Shown here: positions 1,046-8,296 of the stretch, one piece after another | Layout: each line of letters opens with the position of its first letter | Numbering within the stretch: the stretch's first letter is position 1 | DNA from: Escherichia phage a20 | Direction: 5' to 3' (one strand) | Sequence record: OQ067374.1 | DNA: 64,000 nucleotides | Made by a program: the position numbers and the translations under genes | Notes under the pieces: model-generated | Database searches by the model: none | Told to the model about the DNA's origin: nothing | Seen by the model: the letters and a program-made list of their open reading frames with translations, nothing else

Positions 1046-1594
1046 TTAACGAGCCCATTTGATGATTTCTGTAATCAAAACATTACGTTCGCTTGCATTA
1101 AATCCTATAACTTTGTTAGCACCATCATGATTAAGTAATTGATACGTTTGGATTTTGTTATGAATTGCAAACTCTTCAAAATGTGAAATGACTGTATTAA
1201 AACCGAATGAAGACAAAGTAATAAGGTCGTCTTCAAAACTTTCAGTCATTTCGTTACGTGTTAAAATAATTGTGAACACATCATGGTTTTGGCAAAGACG
1301 AACATAATCCTGTTCATAAACGTCAAGAACCGAGTCCGCATCTTGTCGAATACGTCCATAAACCCAGTTACTAATATATCCACGGTCTAACAGATAAATC
1401 TTAGTAGGGTCTAAATAATTCAACATCGTTTCGAAACAGCCAACTTCATTTCGAGACTTAACATCGAAACGTCCATCAACTGTTCGTTTAGGGAAATCAA
1501 TCTTTACATATCTTTCACTAATTTCCATTATGTCATTAATGAAAGTTGTTTTACCAGCATTATCCGGGCCATCTACTAAAATAATTTTAGCCAT
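1046..1594 (-). CDS. P-loop kinase (NMP-kinase-like fold)
   Basis: 182 aa; Walker A GPDNAGKTT near N-terminus and LLDRGY resembling the thymidylate-kinase DRY motif. Lies where T4 has beta-gt. Confidence 0.5.
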   Translation of the reverse strand: MAKIILVDGPDNAGKTTFINDIMEISERYVKIDFPKRTVDGRFDVKSRNEVGCFETMLNYLDPTKIYLLDRGYISNWVYGRIRQDADSVLDVYEQDYVRLCQNHDVFTIILTRNEMTESFEDDLITLSSFGFNTVISHFEEFAIHNKIQTYQLLNHDGANKVIGFNASERNVLITEIIKWAR

Positions 1595-1595
1595 T

Positions 1596-2495
1596 TTATT
1601 CCTCGATTACGACATCTTCATATTTAGGTATATTATACGGTGAAGAAATTAAAGCATTAAAGTAGATGAACTCACCAAGACCTGGATGAAATACTTCTTC
1701 AGGATTTTCGAAATATTGAATCTTCGGACGTCCTTTAAGAATTTGATAGTATTCAGTTTTAGTTGGTTTAAAAATTCGAATCAACGCTTCTTCAGGATAC
1801 TTATTTCTGTCGAAGCTATTATTTGGATCGGTTATATAAAGCGGTTGGCCTAATTGAATTGCACATTCAACCACTTGTTCAAAACGATAGCATGGGTCAC
1901 TAATTCGAAATGGATGAAAAATACCATCTAGATGAATAGGAGCCAAATCACCTACAAGACGCTGCATGATGGAAGGACGTATAACTTTCTGCGTTACGAT
2001 AATCTTATTACCATCTGCACCTGCGTTAACCAGCACTTCTTTTTGACGTTCATTCAACACAGTAGTTTGAAGTGAACGATTAACCGACAACATATCGGTT
2101 TTTAAGAATTCGTCAATATAAAAACGTGGTTTATTAGGGTCTGCAGTGATATTGAAATTGAATTCTACATCAAAAGCGCCGTCATATCCGGTGATATCTG
2201 TGATTAGAAAATCACAATCATAATAAGCAATTAATGAATCAACCACAAATTCATTTTCAGTCCAGAAATATTTACGAGTGTTATACGCGTTATCTTTATA
2301 CCATAATGGAACAAACTTAAATTCTGGGAAAAGACGTTCACATTCTTTAATATCAGATGCATTACGTGGATATGTAATCACATCACCTGGATTAGCACGG
2401 TGCAAATGAAGTTGGAAGTTGCCATCCTTAAGGATAGCATACTGCCCAGTTTCATAAGACCGCATACTCAAAATAGGTACGCGGAAAATAGCCAT
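1596..2495 (-). CDS. hypothetical protein at the beta-glucosyltransferase locus
   Basis: 299 aa, tightly packed between the P-loop kinase and the hydroxymethylase; no resemblance to T4 beta-gt or alpha-gt as I recall them; contains a DCD (DxD-like) tripeptide. Confidence 0.55.
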   Translation of the reverse strand: MAIFRVPILSMRSYETGQYAILKDGNFQLHLHRANPGDVITYPRNASDIKECERLFPEFKFVPLWYKDNAYNTRKYFWTENEFVVDSLIAYYDCDFLITDITGYDGAFDVEFNFNITADPNKPRFYIDEFLKTDMLSVNRSLQTTVLNERQKEVLVNAGADGNKIIVTQKVIRPSIMQRLVGDLAPIHLDGIFHPFRISDPCYRFEQVVECAIQLGQPLYITDPNNSFDRNKYPEEALIRIFKPTKTEYYQILKGRPKIQYFENPEEVFHPGLGEFIYFNALISSPYNIPKYEDVVIEE

Positions 2496-3211
2496 TAGTC
2501 AAGGAATCCTTTAACATAATCAAAATCACGTTCAAACACATGGGCACTTACCATGGTATGAGTATAATCACCAACTTCTACACCACATTCGTTAGCGATA
2601 TAATGAAGTAATTTTCCTTGGAGATAAAAATCCAACTGCATAACAACAGCACAGTTCTGAGAACGCATATGACAGTGGGTATAAAGCTTACCATCACGAA
2701 TATAATAAGTCACTGAGTCAGTACATGGATATTCAAGAGTTTCGTCCGAATCAAGCAAAGCCTGATCAGAACTTTCTAGAATTTGGAACACAACTCTTCG
2801 AGAGTTAGGCTTCTCTTTAAGTTCTTTTAGAAGAGCTGGTAATTGGGCCGCAATGCGAGGACCATAGAAAGTGTTGAAGTTCGCCGGCAAAACATCTGAT
2901 TTTGGTTTAGAAATAAATTTAGCGACATTAGGATATGCCTTAAACGCTTCTTCTGCGTTGGTACCACCAGAAATCATAAACTTCCAGAAGTCTTCGGCAT
3001 ATTCATAAGAGATGCGGTTAATACGTGGGTCAGTCATTTTGAATGATGATGGAGTGTCAACAACTACTGTCATAGACCCAATTTCATTACAACGTCCAAT
3101 ACGAGAATCAGTTACGAATTCCGGGTTTTCTAAAATTTCACGATTGACTGCTTTAAATGCGGTTTGAAAATCTGCGGCTTTGATATATTTCATTGTGTTA
3201 TGTTTTCCCAT
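2495..3211 (-). CDS. 42: deoxypyrimidylate hydroxymethylase (thymidylate synthase superfamily, gp42-like, divergent)
   Basis: 238 aa; SRRVVFQ ... YPCTDSVTYYIRDGKLYTHCHMRSQN resembles the catalytic-Cys region of T4 dCMP hydroxymethylase; syntenic with gene 42; GAGGT precedes the ATG. Confidence 0.65.
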   Translation of the reverse strand: MGKHNTMKYIKAADFQTAFKAVNREILENPEFVTDSRIGRCNEIGSMTVVVDTPSSFKMTDPRINRISYEYAEDFWKFMISGGTNAEEAFKAYPNVAKFISKPKSDVLPANFNTFYGPRIAAQLPALLKELKEKPNSRRVVFQILESSDQALLDSDETLEYPCTDSVTYYIRDGKLYTHCHMRSQNCAVVMQLDFYLQGKLLHYIANECGVEVGDYTHTMVSAHVFERDFDYVKGFLD

Positions 3212-3253
3212 GTTTACCTCAATACAATTTATTATATACTCAATTCATAAAGC

Positions 3254-3493
3254 TTATTTGAATTTCTTAGCGATGTTGATATAACGTAAAGCTTCAGCAT
3301 CGATACTTCCAAGAACACTATGAAGAAATGCATCAGCGTAGTATTCCAATTGAACAGGTTCTTTAATCACTTTAGCCGCTTTGGTTCCAAACAGGCCCAT
3401 AAGGGCCTTTTTAAGAATTTGTTCATTAGTGTTCAGTTTCATAGTCAAAATCTCTTCATTAAGTTGGTGGTTAAAAGTTTTTCTAGAAATCAT
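3254..3493 (-). CDS. hypothetical small protein
   Basis: 79 aa ORF in operon context; no motif recognised. Confidence 0.4.
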   Translation of the reverse strand: MISRKTFNHQLNEEILTMKLNTNEQILKKALMGLFGTKAAKVIKEPVQLEYYADAFLHSVLGSIDAEALRYINIAKKFK

Positions 3494-4650
3494 TCTGGGT
3501 ACCTCAAAGCGTCATCAGAGTTAGTTATATCAATAATAGATATAGAATTTTCTGATAACCCATTTTTAGATAACTGACGTTTATAATATCTTTCACAATA
3601 TGTACACGTCGTCCCGCAGATTTCATTAGCACAATCGAAATCTGGATGTCTGAACCACCTTTTTTCTAAAAAGCCATCTAACAAAGAGGTTTCAATATTT
3701 ACTGTATGTGAAAACTCAGTTTCGTTTTCAAGAGTGAAAATAGTCTCTAAAGGCTTCCACAGTTCTAACAAATTACCTTCAAACTTTTCAGAAGCGTATG
3801 CTTCAAGAACTTTCAAAATGTAGTCTGTGCTACCTGTACGTCCTGAAACTTTGAATTGAGTGATACCAATATCATTATAAAGTTTCAAATCTTGAGGACG
3901 AACAAAACGAGTTCTCAACCAGTTAAATGGGTCTGTATCACGAGCTTTAATGCAGTGTTGCATTGGATATCCGTTTAAGGATTTAGCATCATCAGCTGTA
4001 ACATCAGTACTATGGAAAATATAGCAAGAGTCACGATAGCTACAATGTGTTGTATACCCTTTACCAGCATTAGAACAGAACTCATTTACAAGAACTTCAA
4101 ATATTATATTGTTCTTATTGCAAAACTCTGCTGCACGCTTCAGGAAAGAAACTGAACGGTTCTTATGAATTCCACAGCAGACCTTTTTGATATTATATTG
4201 GTCATGCAAGTATTTGATTTGAGTTACAGCATCGACATGTAGAATTGTTGAAACTTCAATCTCAATGTCTTTATTGACTTCACGAACAATTTCCATAACA
4301 ACAGGGTTAGCGATAGTAATACGCCATACGCCTATTGACCAAAGATACTGAACATAATCCTGAATAGCTTTCTTCTTCCACTCAACTAGTTCTCTTTTTG
4401 AACCAGGATTTATCGTGTTGAGTGTATAGTTAAAGCAAATACCTAATTCGTTACAACGTTTAACGTAATCTTCTAACATCTTTTTGTCAACGTCAGGAAG
4501 CCTAAAATCAGGTCTGGCTGCTACAAAAGCCATTTCTCTTGTAGAGCCGTATACTTCGTTTATCAAGCTATTAGGATAAGTTTTATTGAGCTCTACGATT
4601 TTATCAAGAAGAGCTAAATCAAAATTCGTTCCAATTTTAAAAGTATTCAT
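3490..4650 (-). CDS. hypothetical protein with C-terminal CX4CX3CX2C cysteine cluster
   Basis: 386 aa; C-terminal CANEICGTTCTYC plus further scattered Cys; no family confidently assigned. Confidence 0.6.
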   Translation of the reverse strand: MNTFKIGTNFDLALLDKIVELNKTYPNSLINEVYGSTREMAFVAARPDFRLPDVDKKMLEDYVKRCNELGICFNYTLNTINPGSKRELVEWKKKAIQDYVQYLWSIGVWRITIANPVVMEIVREVNKDIEIEVSTILHVDAVTQIKYLHDQYNIKKVCCGIHKNRSVSFLKRAAEFCNKNNIIFEVLVNEFCSNAGKGYTTHCSYRDSCYIFHSTDVTADDAKSLNGYPMQHCIKARDTDPFNWLRTRFVRPQDLKLYNDIGITQFKVSGRTGSTDYILKVLEAYASEKFEGNLLELWKPLETIFTLENETEFSHTVNIETSLLDGFLEKRWFRHPDFDCANEICGTTCTYCERYYKRQLSKNGLSENSISIIDITNSDDALRYPE

Positions 4651-4707
4651 TTTTTTTGCATCTCACGTTAATTGATGCGATGGTTTTTGCAGGTCTTACT
4701 TAAATTA

Positions 4708-5097
4708 TTATAGATTCGGTTTATATGATTTAAATGTTTCGAATTCGCCTTTATTCATAAGAGCTTTGAATTCGTCAGGACGCATAGCTTTGTCGTCGAT
4801 AATCCAATCATATACTGGTTTATGTGTTAGCAAATTATGGTACTTCAAACCAATGTTTTCCAAGTTCTGAATCAGACTTGGGAGAATGTCAATTGCTATA
4901 CGTCCAGGACCTACTGACTTCATACCGCGAGCAGTGTAAAGCGTTATGGTATGCCCTGCATCATACAGAGCATTAATAGCAGTCACCATTTCGACGTCTG
5001 GTTTGAAGTTCACGTAATCACGATTGTTATTCCACTCTGTTATACAATCATCGACGTCCACGCAAAGATGTAATGGTTTCATAGCAATATCCTTCAA
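4708..5097 (-). CDS. HAD-superfamily phosphatase-like protein
   Basis: 129 aa; LCVDVDDCIT resembles HAD motif I (DxDx); start may be the second Met at 5082. Its 5' end overlaps the 3' end of the homing endonuclease gene. Confidence 0.5.
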   Translation of the reverse strand: MKDIAMKPLHLCVDVDDCITEWNNNRDYVNFKPDVEMVTAINALYDAGHTITLYTARGMKSVGPGRIAIDILPSLIQNLENIGLKYHNLLTHKPVYDWIIDDKAMRPDEFKALMNKGEFETFKSYKPNL

Positions 5098-5809
5098 TAG
5101 AATTTTTAATATTATCAGCTATACGCTTTCTAGGAATACCCGTTTTCTTTTCAGCTATCCTAAGAGATTCATAGTAATTTTCGTTTATTTTAACAAATTT
5201 TTGAGACTTGTGAGCATTTTTGCTTTCGTCCTGATATCGATAATTAAGATATTTAGGCGATTTTACTCTCTTTTGAATCGTGGCAGAAGATATACCCAAA
5301 TCTTTAGCCGCTTCCCGACAGGATTCATAATATTTGCCATCTACATTAATCTTTAGACCATGTAATGCAGGTTTACCATACCTCCTGTGCTTTTCTTTAC
5401 CCCTAGCTATAGATTCAGCTGACAAAGTTTTACCCCATCTTGGGTTTTTATCACCAACTAAACGTCCTTTATTTGCCTTAGAAATTTTATCCTTGGACCT
5501 TTGGGATAACCCGTCAGAACCGCCTTCGCCACCAGTTTTAAGATTGTAATAATTTGGGTCTTTAACTATGTCTAATGTTATTAGAGCCTTTTCAGCTATT
5601 TTTAATTCTTCTCTCGAGCTATGGTAGGAAATGATTTCTTTAAGAAAATTTTCCTTCCCGTATTTCCTTTCAGCCTTTTTATATAATTTACCAGAACCTT
5701 TATATAAATCTAAAGGCTCGGCTTCTTCAGCCGAGTGCATTCCTAAATAAACTTTACCGTTTATAAGATTAGTAGTTTTGTAGAGATAATGTATCAAATT
5801 CGTTCCCAT
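5048..5809 (-). CDS. GIY-YIG homing endonuclease (seg-like)
   Basis: 253 aa; N-terminal IHYLYKTTNLINGKVYLGMHS is a GIY-YIG module; basic C-terminal DNA-binding region. Confidence 0.8.
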   Translation of the reverse strand: MGTNLIHYLYKTTNLINGKVYLGMHSAEEAEPLDLYKGSGKLYKKAERKYGKENFLKEIISYHSSREELKIAEKALITLDIVKDPNYYNLKTGGEGGSDGLSQRSKDKISKANKGRLVGDKNPRWGKTLSAESIARGKEKHRRYGKPALHGLKINVDGKYYESCREAAKDLGISSATIQKRVKSPKYLNYRYQDESKNAHKSQKFVKINENYYESLRIAEKKTGIPRKRIADNIKNSIEGYCYETITSLRGRR

Positions 5810-7479
5810 TGATGAGTGATATCGCCACCGATTGGACGATAGGAAACACCAGTTTCTTTATCAGTTAGTACCCATTTACCAGGATTTTTTGTAATCAGAG
5901 TAGCCGTTACAGGTTCTGCTACGTCATAACTAATAGAGCCGTCTTGAAGTACACGGCCCATATTACGTAATTGCTTAGTCAGAAGTTCCATACCTTTATA
6001 ATATGCGGCTACCGCTTTAAGTGGATTATTCTTGAAATAACCACCTAATGCAATCCAGATAATTGCCACTGCCAAATGATGATACTCGTTAAACGAACTC
6101 ATCTTTCCATATTTGTAAACTAATGGATTGATGTTAATAGTCACATTACAAGTTGTTTCATCAATAGTAAACTGTCCCCAGGTCGGATTAGCATTGAATT
6201 CATCATAACCTGAAACAGCATAAAGCACTTTAGCTTCATCATACAATTTTGGCCCGTAAATCTTGGTTTCGCCAAAATATCCACGAGGGTCGATAAACTT
6301 AACTTCGCCGTTATCAGTAATCATAGTATTACTGAAGTTCGGGTCACCATGAATAACAGAGTACTGTCCCTGAGAACGGTTATGATAACGAATAAGATGT
6401 TCTAAAGCTTGTTTCAGCATTGGCTTCAGACGTCCAATCTTAGTGTAGTTCACATGTGTGATTTTACCAAATGAATCAATCAATGGTTGAATGCTTTCAC
6501 AACGATCAATAACTTTCGTATAGAATTCTTTAGTGAAATCACGACGAACAGTTTCAGGACTTACAAAATAAGTGTCTGTGCTGAATTTCAGTGCATCTAA
6601 AATTGTATCAACAATTTGTGGACGAGCAAGACTTGATTTGGATTTAATATATTCAAATGCCGGCTTACCTTTAATGCGTTCCATTTCAAAGTTATTTTCA
6701 TTAACAGAAACTAACTGAGGGACTGAATCTGATTTCACTTTCAAATACCACGAAATCTCATCTTTCTGAAGAGCTCGGCCCTGTTCGGTTAATGCGAATT
6801 TAGTTACAGTTTCTTCACCGATTTCAACTGCATTAAAACTACGATTAAGTTCACGAACTTCATGAGCTTTTTCAAGTTTAGGCATATCACCTAAATCAAT
6901 TAGATTCATAAGCTCTGATTTATTGAATGCGCCGCTGTAAAGGAATTCTACGAAATCACGTCCTTTGCAGTATTCATGAATTTCTTCATCAGTAGAACCC
7001 ATATAGAATTCCCAGTCTTTGAACTGATAAATTCCTACAACATTACCACCTGTTGAACCTACGTTAGTGATATTTTCACCGTCGAAATTATATCGACATT
7101 CGTCGCCCTTAACATAGATTGCGTTAACATTCCAAGACCATGAACCAAAATCGGGAATAATATCACACCAGTTAACAATTACATTATGGCCGTCTAAATC
7201 TTTGTGTAATTTAGCAAGAGCATAAGCAGATCCATACGCTTCATCAACTGTACGAATAGTCACATTGAACCCTTCTTGCTCACAATAAGCTCGAACAGTT
7301 TCAGCAAATTTTGAATGAACTACTACAATAATTTCATCTGCGCCTAGGTCAGAATAAATTGTATACAAATTGCTCAGAATAGTGTCTTGTTTATAGTTAA
7401 CAAGCACCTTAGGAATATGGTGAGTAATTGGATATAAACGAGTTGCCAGTCCAGCACCAAGAATAACAGCTTTTTTCAT
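5794..7479 (-). CDS. bifunctional sugar-1-phosphate nucleotidyltransferase / APH-like sugar kinase
   Basis: 561 aa; N-terminus MKKAVILGAGLATRLYPITHHIPKVLV is the classic G-x-G-T-R-x-x-P nucleotidyltransferase signature; C-terminal VIHGDPNFSNTMI ... FIDPRG is the HGD-x4-N catalytic loop of APH/choline-kinase-type kinases. Confidence 0.75.
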   Translation of the reverse strand: MKKAVILGAGLATRLYPITHHIPKVLVNYKQDTILSNLYTIYSDLGADEIIVVVHSKFAETVRAYCEQEGFNVTIRTVDEAYGSAYALAKLHKDLDGHNVIVNWCDIIPDFGSWSWNVNAIYVKGDECRYNFDGENITNVGSTGGNVVGIYQFKDWEFYMGSTDEEIHEYCKGRDFVEFLYSGAFNKSELMNLIDLGDMPKLEKAHEVRELNRSFNAVEIGEETVTKFALTEQGRALQKDEISWYLKVKSDSVPQLVSVNENNFEMERIKGKPAFEYIKSKSSLARPQIVDTILDALKFSTDTYFVSPETVRRDFTKEFYTKVIDRCESIQPLIDSFGKITHVNYTKIGRLKPMLKQALEHLIRYHNRSQGQYSVIHGDPNFSNTMITDNGEVKFIDPRGYFGETKIYGPKLYDEAKVLYAVSGYDEFNANPTWGQFTIDETTCNVTININPLVYKYGKMSSFNEYHHLAVAIIWIALGGYFKNNPLKAVAAYYKGMELLTKQLRNMGRVLQDGSISYDVAEPVTATLITKNPGKWVLTDKETGVSYRPIGGDITHQWERI

Positions 7480-7663
7480 GTTGTGGTCCTCATTGGTAAG
7501 TAGGAGTATTGTACACTATTCTAGTTAAAGCATTCATACTTTGCTTGTAGTCCAATCATAATCCATCCAATTACAAGTGTTGGAATCATTACCGGAGCCG
7601 TTAAGCTCCAGTAGATAGTCATGACAAGCATCAATAGTAAAAGTCCTATTGCTATTGCTTTCA

Positions 7664-8296
7664 TTATTCGCCTCGTAACATGGCACCTAGTGCACCACCA
7701 GGGTGGAACTTAAGGAAATCATTAGAGGTAAATCCACGTTCAGACGAAAGGTTGATAGCAAACGTATCGATAAGCGCTAACAACAATGTAGTGGACATAG
7801 TCGGAGCCAGAGAATTCTCATCAACCTCTACTGCGATGCCTGTACAGAAAGAGTAATCAAAAAGGGCTTCATTTTCTTGTGGAATGTCTGGGTTACAATG
7901 CAACAGAATCTGTTTGACGTTCGGACGAATCATTTTAAGATGCTTAGCCACGCCTATCATTTCTTCAGTTTTACCAGAACGACTAATATGAATCAACACA
8001 TCATTAGGCGCAATGAATCCTGCATCACCGTGAGAATAATGCCCAGTGTTCAAGTACATACTCGGGATACCTAGTGAAGCAAAAGTCTCGGAAGCTTTAG
8101 TTGCGATATTAGCATTCTTACCAACACCTGTAATAATTACTCGGCTTTCATAATTACTAAGTCCCGGGCGTCGAAGAGTTTCTAGAATAGCATTATAACG
8201 AGCAGGGTTTTGACTAATTACTTTGGCCATAGCGGCCAAAGAAGAAGCTTGTTTTATGATTGCGTCAATAGCGATAGTAATAGGAGTAGTTTTCAT
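7664..8296 (-). CDS. SIS-domain sugar-phosphate isomerase (KdsD/KpsF-type, arabinose-5-phosphate isomerase-like, no CBS domains)
   Basis: 210 aa; VIITGVGKNANIATKASETFASLGIPS...HGDAGFIAPNDVLIHISRSGKTEE and LAPTMSTT...FHPGGALG align closely with the SIS domain of E. coli KdsD as I recall it. Confidence 0.75.
   Translation of the reverse strand: MKTTPITIAIDAIIKQASSLAAMAKVISQNPARYNAILETLRRPGLSNYESRVIITGVGKNANIATKASETFASLGIPSMYLNTGHYSHGDAGFIAPNDVLIHISRSGKTEEMIGVAKHLKMIRPNVKQILLHCNPDIPQENEALFDYSFCTGIAVEVDENSLAPTMSTTLLLALIDTFAINLSSERGFTSNDFLKFHPGGALGAMLRGE

Follow-up and report, generated by a model that had tools for sequence, protein, structure and literature searches.

A Mosigvirus cytosine-hypermodification cluster between uvsX and gp43 of Escherichia phage a20, with a U32-family protein as a candidate second hydroxylase

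What does the compact gene block between uvsX and the DNA polymerase gene gp43 of Escherichia phage a20 make, and which of its proteins takes which step? We addressed this question for positions 1046-8296 of a 64,000-nucleotide stretch of the phage genome (record OQ067374.1; hereafter the window), where the listing of open reading frames (ORFs) places every gene of the block on the minus strand. An earlier interpretation made from the letters alone (the sequence-only reading) had proposed a DNA-hypermodification cassette at this site, and this outline was borne out by the ORFs, by Pfam and NCBIfam domains and by identity to phage RB69. The region is, almost certainly, the Mosigvirus cytosine-hypermodification cluster (RB69 gp45-gp55; the Afh genes of phage HY126) that leads to 5-O-arabinofuranosyl-5-hydroxycytosine in DNA. 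The cassette is already known from papers that appeared between 2018 and 2026; for one of its members, a U32-family protein, we put forward a tentative role.

All seven ORFs named in the sequence-only reading were present, with limits that were exact or a few bases off, and profile searches against Pfam and NCBIfam supported its domain calls:

1046-1594, minus strand: P-loop, thymidylate-kinase-like nucleotide kinase, 182 amino acids (aa), ortholog of RB69 gp45; Walker-A motif 'GPDNAGKTT'
1596-2495, minus strand: predicted GT-B glycosyltransferase (GT), DNA arabinosyltransferase 1, 299 aa, ortholog of RB69 gp46:47; fold according to PMC13326640
2495-3211, minus strand: 5-hydroxy-dCMP synthase, thymidylate synthase (TS) superfamily, 238 aa, ortholog of RB69 gp48; Pfam Thymidylat_synt, 2.3e-15
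3490-4650, minus strand: U32-family protein, 386 aa with 13 cysteines, ortholog of RB69 gp50; Pfam Peptidase_U32, 7.3e-11
4708-5082 (or to 5097), minus strand: HAD-type phosphatase, 124 aa, RB69 gp51, AfhF-like; TIGR01689 capsule-biosynthesis phosphatase, 1.1e-13
5794-7479, minus strand: bifunctional nucleotidyltransferase/kinase (NT/kinase), 561 aa, RB69 gp52:53, AfhE-like; NTP_transferase, 9.4e-10, residues 3-99
7664-8296, minus strand: predicted arabinose-5-phosphate isomerase with a single SIS domain, 210 aa, ortholog of RB69 gp55; Pfam SIS, 1e-10

In megablast searches, the region was 99.0% identical to Escherichia phage NRG-P0074 along its full length and 98.1% identical to RB69 with 90% of the region covered, the RB69 match falling into two pieces because a homing-endonuclease insertion makes a gap. 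The gene order is the same as in both of these phages, the GC content is even across the block (34-41%), and by sequence comparison the window phage belongs to Mosigvirus. The replacement of beta-gt and imm that had been proposed for this interval was confirmed, in that neither these genes nor alpha-gt are annotated there in the two nearest records (PQ480333 and RB69). The 299-aa and 561-aa genes are intact in the window; the RB69 reference record splits each of them in two, and these splits of gp46:47 and gp52:53 have been put down to sequencing errors (PMC13326640; PMC6024577).

Base and sugar branches of the cassette

The identity of the modified base decides how the cassette is read. The sequence-only reading took it to be 5-hydroxymethylcytosine (hmC) made by a divergent gp42-like hydroxymethylase, and arabinosyl-hmC was indeed what the 2018 RB69 paper reported (PMC6024577). 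Nuclear magnetic resonance (NMR) and mass spectrometry (MS) have instead identified mono- and di-arabinosylated 5-hydroxycytosine (5hoC) in RB69 DNA, with the sugar ether-linked straight to C5 (PMC13326640). Virion DNA of Mosigvirus NP contains arabinosyl-5-hydroxy-dC, as in RB69, and the Durham-collection paper that describes it calls the earlier hmC assignment erroneous (PMC13390438). The TS-like protein of the window agrees with this chemistry. It matched PDB entry 9IQC over its full length (E=7.9e-161) and is near-identical to chains 9IQC/9IR2/9IQU; in an alignment with E. coli ThyA, the catalytic C146 is kept, L143 is replaced by E and D169 by N, and the N177 column is an alignment gap, 'QLD' facing 'PFN'. 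5-Hydroxy-dCMP synthases are marked by L143E, N177D and D169N along with the catalytic cysteine; the window protein shows the cysteine, L143E and D169N, and the supposed hydroxymethylase is better described as a flavin/O2-dependent dCMP 5-hydroxylase. In RB69, gp48 binds flavin and forms 5-hydroxy-dCMP with oxygen taken from O2; gp48 by itself is enough for 5hoC in aerobic E. coli, and gp159 phosphorylates its product (PMC13326640). The 182-aa protein gave weak DTMP_kinase and AAA matches (Pfam, NCBIfam), has homologs in the Dhakavirus and Acinetobacter phage clusters, and is called 'thymidylate kinase' in the PQ480333 and RB69 annotation and 'nucleotide kinase' (gp45) in Table 1 of PMC13326640.

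The proposal that the SIS, HAD and fused nucleotidyltransferase/kinase proteins form an NDP-arabinose pathway from ribulose-5-phosphate was upheld by domain matches and by the RB69 literature. The SIS protein scored against the NCBIfam models KpsF/GutQ (2e-32), KdsD (7.2e-31) and GutQ (9e-23), with only the SIS part of the models matched, and it lacks the CBS domains found in KdsD and GutQ. The 561-aa protein matched archaeal GlmU, AglF and MurU models (MurU 1.7e-5) and PDB 1JYK (2e-5), and its C-terminal half gave weak kinase-fold matches at residues 308-409 (fructosamine kinase, APH, EcKL). The HAD protein contains a 'DVDD' motif and matched PDB 9IQW (E=9.2e-80, near-identical) and 1XPJ (6.9e-11); a FoldSeek match to heptose-1,7-bisphosphate 7-phosphatase has also been described for it (PMC13326640). 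The donor genes had been thought unassigned, a claim to novelty that fails because ORF055c (SIS) and ORF53_52c (NT/kinase) were proposed for UDP-arabinose synthesis in 2018 (PMC6024577) and the genes were assigned in 2025-2026.

The order of the sugar steps also had to be revised. As relayed by PMC13326640 from He et al. (Nat Chem Biol 2026), AfhE of phage HY126 is a bifunctional enzyme, a kinase for arabinose-5-phosphate and also a UDP-arabinose pyrophosphorylase, and AfhF is a Mg-dependent phosphatase that converts arabinose-1,5-bisphosphate to arabinose-1-phosphate; we infer the same activities for the window enzymes through near-identity. In place of a route through free arabinose, the order given in that account runs from arabinose-5-phosphate through arabinose-1,5-bisphosphate and arabinose-1-phosphate to UDP-arabinofuranose (PMC13326640).

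The pathway as a whole would then run as follows. The TS-like enzyme (2495-3211) would hydroxylate dCMP at C5 with flavin and O2, kinases would lift 5-hydroxy-dCMP to the triphosphate, and the polymerase would incorporate it. On the sugar side, the SIS isomerase (7664-8296) is predicted to turn ribulose-5-phosphate into arabinose-5-phosphate, which the C-terminal kinase domain of the 561-aa enzyme would phosphorylate at C1 to give arabinofuranose-1,5-bisphosphate. The HAD phosphatase (4708-5082) would take off the 5-phosphate, and the N-terminal nucleotidyltransferase domain of the 561-aa enzyme would yield UDP-arabinofuranose. The predicted GT-B protein of 299 aa would place the first arabinose on 5-hydroxycytosine in DNA, and a second transferase, encoded outside the region, would add a further one. 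For the 386-aa U32 protein the most likely place, as we infer it, would be that of a second source of the C5 hydroxyl, independent of O2 and dependent on prephenate.

Free arabinose is no intermediate in this order, and for that reason the MupP/AmgK/MurU salvage pathway favoured by the sequence-only reading is not the best analogy. The N-terminal domain of the 561-aa protein does resemble MurU, and AmgK has an APH-like kinase fold; in the salvage pathway, however, dephosphorylation comes first and the kinase takes the free sugar, whereas the order reported for the cassette starts with the kinase, on the 5-phosphorylated sugar. In its logic, the ADP-heptose pathway fits the reported order better. 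That pathway, which serves the lipopolysaccharide core, employs the SIS isomerase GmhA, the bifunctional kinase/nucleotidyltransferase HldE and the HAD phosphatase GmhB. The enzyme classes are shared, and in both cases a sugar 1,n-bisphosphate is made from which the HAD enzyme removes the distal phosphate before nucleotidyl transfer. The cassette differs in that its substrate is a pentose, its nucleotide is UDP, and its kinase domain folds like APH and choline kinases and not like ribokinases; given these different kinase folds, the two pathways are analogous, not orthologous.

The cassette may likewise be compared with the glucosyl-hmC locus of T4, which occupies the same uvsX-gp43 slot. In both, a TS-superfamily enzyme alters dCMP before replication and glycosyltransferases then decorate the DNA hydroxyl. 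In T4 the base is made by folate-dependent hydroxymethylation (gp42) and glucosylated by alpha- and beta-glucosyltransferases from host UDP-glucose, whereas the cassette would use flavin and O2 hydroxylation and arabinofuranose from a phage-made donor, and the glycosyltransferases are unrelated. The window carries no annotated glucosyltransferase in the interval, and its TS homolog has the D169N substitution, neither of which fits T4-type glucosylation of hmC. With RB69 gp45-gp55 and the HY126 Afh genes, the window shares genus and gene order (98% DNA identity to RB69), and its TS-like and HAD proteins are near-identical to 9IQC and 9IQW; unlike RB69, the window phage carries a GIY-YIG homing endonuclease as an addition, and its HAD protein begins with a remodelled N-terminus.

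Two other accounts of the locus have to be weighed against this one. That the base is hmC from a divergent gp42, with NDP-arabinose made in the salvage order (HAD to free arabinose, then a C1 kinase, then nucleotidylation), fits the domain content on paper and the 2018 report of arabinosyl-hmC, and Table 1 of PMC13326640 still says 'dephosphorylates Araf5p to Ara'; the NMR and MS placement of the arabinose ether on 5hoC, the hydroxylase signature D169N in the window enzyme and the HY126 biochemistry, as given in the text of the same paper, nevertheless make it very improbable. Less probable still is that the SIS, HAD and NT/kinase genes serve host envelope sugars (Kdo, capsule or heptose) as auxiliary metabolic genes. 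This is what database names such as 'capsule biosynthesis phosphatase', 'KpsF/GutQ', 'phosphoheptose isomerase' and 'GlmU' would suggest, yet the sugar genes lie embedded between those of the base hydroxylase and of the DNA arabinosyltransferase and are kept together in phages whose DNA has arabinosyl-5hoC.

Several points count against the arabinosyl-5hoC pathway as laid out here. The 299-aa GT, which the sequence-only reading had found as an ORF and called 'unknown', is reported as the first DNA arabinosyltransferase, gp46:47 and gp3 being the predicted arabinosyltransferases of RB69 (PMC13326640); its ORF thus stood and the label did not. Even so, it was without a sequence-level match to any family or solved structure in Pfam, NCBIfam and PDB, its family profile gave a single, chance-level match in PDB, and the GT assignment is a computational prediction, in the literature as here. 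The same holds for the predicted conversion of ribulose-5-phosphate by the SIS isomerase and for the putative TMK-like role of the 182-aa kinase. More generally, the activities are known from the RB69 and HY126 relatives and are carried to the window proteins by comparison, and in the HAD protein the homing-endonuclease insertion rewrites the first ~7 codons, with the DxDD motif intact. The cassette explains the resistance of RB69-type phages to many restriction enzymes and their lack of recombination with T4, and is of relevance to phage therapy and DNA-glycosylation tools; to these matters the window adds no new knowledge.

Public annotation of the cassette is inconsistent and partly wrong in the records compared (PQ480333, designated L001; NC_004928, designated L002; L003 and L005). 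The NT/kinase appears as 'dCMP deaminase' or 'GlmU', the HAD protein as 'phosphoheptose isomerase', the GT as 'RNA polymerase binding protein' and the U32 protein as 'peptidase'.

The U32-family protein as a candidate hydroxylase

These phages have gut bacteria as hosts, whereas the hydroxylase described in the literature depends on O2. Within the cassette, the protein that bears on this point is the 386-aa ORF, which the sequence-only reading had correctly recorded as Cys-rich and left uninterpreted. It belongs to the U32 family by Pfam, with a PF01136 score of 42.2 bits against a gathering cutoff of 22.4. Its AlphaFold2 model (pLDDT 92.7, pTM 0.91) had the U32 protein 5D88 as top PDB fold match, in line with the TIM-barrel fold of the family; the sequence itself had no match in PDB. 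Among 60 homologs that are 48-87% identical, ten cysteines are invariant (158, 177, 192, 203, 209, 233, 340, 345, 349 and 352). In the literature, gp50 is labelled just 'sugar or heterocycle reductase' (PMC13326640).

We compared the four E. coli U32 genes with the phage protein by hidden Markov model (HMM) searches and hhalign. RlhA gave a moderate match (76% probability, E=2.2e-5, 205 columns), and the pair C203-x5-C209 of the phage protein fell on the essential CX6C pair of RlhA; TrhP, UbiU and UbiV matched weakly. RlhA is needed for 5-hydroxycytidine 2501 in 23S rRNA (PMC5727448); of its relatives, TrhP acts in the formation of ho5U34 in tRNA and UbiU/UbiV in anaerobic ubiquinone synthesis (PMC5727448, PMC10990095). 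For all of these the literature reports a link to Fe-S clusters and to prephenate, the proposed or demonstrated source of the oxygen where O2 is not used (PMC5727448, PMC10990095), and RlhA and TrhP/TrhO hydroxylate pyrimidines with no homolog of the TS-like enzyme (PMC13326640). The phage protein shares with the RlhA/TrhP/UbiU/UbiV group the U32 domain, conserved cysteines including the pair on the RlhA CX6C, and a C-terminal Cys cluster; on the phage side there is a genomic tie to prephenate supply, and the RlhA product, 5-hydroxycytidine, corresponds to the base chemistry of the cassette. It differs in forming a distinct short subfamily (~360-390 aa) with CX5C, in lying in phage nucleotide-metabolism and DNA-glycosylation neighbourhoods, and in that its substrate would be a deoxynucleotide or DNA, not RNA or a quinone.

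We propose, at somewhat less than an even chance, that the U32 protein may be an Fe-S, prephenate-dependent and O2-independent C5 hydroxylase of cytosine, either in a deoxynucleotide or in DNA. An anaerobic route to 5-hydroxycytosine would then be available to enteric T4-like phages beside the O2/flavin TS-like enzyme, and such a two-hydroxylase arrangement would parallel, by analogy, NrdAB/NrdDG, TrhO/TrhP and UbiIHF/UbiUV. Full-text literature, a body that did not cover He et al. 2026 and Mahler et al. 2025, contained nothing linking U32 or chorismate mutase (CM) to phage DNA modification, and the Thanatos paper is silent on its own U32 homolog. That the lead is both correct and unreported is also, in our estimate, somewhat doubtful.

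U32 gene neighbourhoods and distribution

A tblastn search placed the U32 gene in 221 phage records, with an identity of 80% or more in each. Among the genera named in the tally, which has a few more, and the matches listed, the hosts are Shewanella and enterics (Escherichia, Klebsiella, Shigella, Serratia, Proteus, Yersinia, Enterobacter, Providencia, Edwardsiella, Pectobacterium). The TS-type hydroxylase homolog was present in 377 records, 57 of them from Acinetobacter phages and 22 from Rhizobium phages; no Acinetobacter or Rhizobium phage record was among the 221 U32 matches, a phyletic hint at O2-independent activity. U32 is also the more strongly conserved of the two: across genera it keeps at least 80% identity versus 66-85% for the TS homolog, and matches of at least 99% identity were seen in 151 records for U32, 94 for the TS homolog and none for a 79-aa ORF that lies between them. 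If U32 is the second hydroxylase, phages of strict aerobes would have the TS-like hydroxylase only, and many uncultivated phages U32 only.

Chorismate metabolism accompanies the gene in two unrelated phage groups. In phages LC53 and Entb_45, an AroQ chorismate mutase lies between U32 and the TS homolog (CM_2 1.7e-11 and 2.4e-10). A CM homolog was found in 56 phage records (tblastn); in the T4-like loci inspected it separates U32 from the TS homolog, and most of the remaining matches have feature labels in agreement with this. Mosigviruses, the window phage included, have lost it. There is also a large metagenomic family, 40-58% identical to gp50, whose contexts are those of phage nucleotide metabolism (thymidylate kinase, UDG, dCMP deaminase, dUTPase, NT5C, dNK). 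Of 33 distant viral loci from IMG/VR, 23 have a homolog of the 299-aa GT near U32, 16 an AfhE-like NT/kinase and 9 a SIS gene. DAHP synthase (DAHPS) is present in 6/33, fused to CM_2 in four of the six, and a seventh DAHPS neighbour occurs in another locus (L010), so that in seven distant phage loci DAHPS or DAHPS::CM lies within ~650 bp of U32. In several loci the order is GT, SIS, NT/kinase, an unassigned ORF, DAHPS::CM, HAD and U32. The CM genes of T4-like phages and the DAHPS and DAHPS::CM genes of uncultivated phages would serve to supply prephenate for U32. A reading of the DAHPS neighbour as a Kdo-8-P synthase acting on arabinose-5-phosphate was rejected because of the CM_2 fusion in four loci and the better scores of the DAHPS models (2.6e-70 versus 2.9e-17 for KDO8PS).

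A filter-free HMM search placed a TS-superfamily gene within 10 kb of U32 in just one of the 33 loci. We also considered a divergent TS hidden in these loci and rejected it, the sole match being a canonical ThyA (L143, D169 and N177).

The opposing view is that the U32 protein is no hydroxylase of the modification pathway and is instead a sugar or heterocycle reductase, a peptidase or a modifier of host RNA, in which case the neighbouring CM and DAHPS genes serve another purpose; we regard this as a serious possibility that nonetheless stays below even. It draws on most of the points that weigh against hydroxylation. In vitro reconstitution has not been achieved for any U32 enzyme (PMC10990095). 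The phage protein is far from the characterised members (hhalign 12% probability with TrhP; NCBIfam UbiU 8.9e-4), and its Cys spacing departs from the canonical 4Fe-4S motif CX6CX15CX3-4C. Dhakaviruses infect E. coli without U32, some other enteric phages also lack it, and gp48 alone makes 5hoC in aerobic E. coli (PMC13326640). The window itself has no CM gene, and the scarcity of TS genes holds for the 10 kb around U32, not for whole genomes. Set against the non-hydroxylase view are four observations: U32 exceeds every other protein of the cassette in conservation, it is tied to prephenate-supply genes in two unrelated phage groups, it stands beside GT and NDP-arabinose genes in loci with no TS-type hydroxylase within 10 kb, and the family offers a precedent in the 5-hydroxycytidine made by RlhA (PMC5727448). 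If the hydroxylase role is true, U32 would explain hypermodification without oxygen, the U32 hydroxylase family would be extended to DNA precursors, shikimate-pathway genes in phage genomes would gain a purpose, and many uncultivated phages would have a TS-independent route to hydroxylated, glycosylated pyrimidines.

The cluster is also found in Dhakavirus, Winklervirus, Kanagawavirus and Acinetobacter phages; in Acinetobacter phage Maestro it is complete apart from U32. The coliphage Dhakavirus IME341 (L005, NC_055742 143243-159935) has a reduced cluster of NT/kinase, HAD, kinase, TS homolog and GT, with neither the SIS isomerase nor U32 and with imm kept; it presumably draws on host KdsD/GutQ for arabinose-5-phosphate. 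The idea that U32 is found in every phage of facultative anaerobes was rejected on this genome, which has the arabinose cluster without U32.

Some loci extend the picture beyond arabinose. Three small viral contigs of ~40-60 kb (L013, L036 and L041) combine U32 with a gp46:47-like GT; all three also encode a UDP-galactopyranose mutase, and L013 and L041 have a further GT that is TAGT-like. Such a gene content suggests galactofuranosylated hydroxypyrimidine DNA whose synthesis does without a TS-type hydroxylase. In two other loci (L008 and L009; ENA ERZ28598223 scaffold_150 and Logan SRR13347290), U32 is accompanied by NT5C deoxyribonucleotidase, deoxynucleoside kinase and nucleoside deoxyribosyltransferase-like genes, together with those for an NMN transporter, a radical-SAM/SPASM protein and another, divergent U32. 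GH43 and dockerin genes lie on the contig as well, and this may be a deoxynucleoside-modification island of a cell or a prophage. In one viral contig, an IS605 OrfB/TnpB with a Cas12f-like TNB domain is inserted directly upstream of the U32 gene (L043:8689-9951).

Flanking genes, homing endonuclease and small reading frames

The block is flanked by uvsX on one side and the gp43 gene on the other. It also holds three ORFs that the sequence-only reading, otherwise right in the genes it named, had omitted:

<1-947 of the window: uvsX, immediately upstream of the block, by synteny with PQ480333 and RB69
3254-3493, minus strand: 79-aa ORF, RB69 ORF049c, without a family match; 4-nucleotide overlap with the U32 stop
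5048-5809, minus strand: free-standing GIY-YIG/NUMOD homing endonuclease, 253 aa; I-TevI_DNA-bd 3.6e-8, NUMOD1, NUMOD3, SegE_GIY-YIG, TIGR01453 4e-17
7521-7664, minus strand: hydrophobic, membrane-like 47-aa ORF MKAIAIGLLLLMLVMTIYWSLTAPVMIPTLVIGWIMIGLQAKYECFN between the SIS and NT/kinase genes; a CDS in PQ480333
8337-11048, minus strand: DNA polymerase gp43, 903 aa, an ORF annotated as DNA polymerase in PQ480333 and RB69

By blastn against RB69, the homing-endonuclease insertion spans ~5074-5797, with 724 bp in place of 25 bp at the HAD/NT-kinase junction, and the endonuclease gene overlaps both the HAD and the NT/kinase genes. The endonuclease is found in NRG-P0074, BEU50 and JM17 and is absent from RB69 and most Mosigviruses; in LC53, a 'putative endonuclease' is annotated at nearly the same place, between the HAD and U32 genes.

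The 79-aa ORF was considered as a chorismate mutase and rejected: it has no CM_2 match and aligns poorly with genuine phage CMs, and in Yersinia phage TG1 and Serratia phage 92A1 a 79-aa-type gene and a separate CM_2 gene stand side by side. It evolves far faster than its neighbours (mostly 90-95% identity within Mosigvirus) and is shortened or frameshifted in many genomes, as 47-58 aa variants or two-piece tblastn matches. Its N-terminal 'INHxLNE' motif recurs at the N-terminus of the LC53 chorismate mutase. This suggests an ancestral order of U32, p049, CM and TS, followed by lineage-specific deletions or fusions.

The 47-aa ORF has a counterpart of the same size and place in LC53, annotated 'Transmembrane segment(s)'; the Dhakavirus cluster has imm nearby instead.

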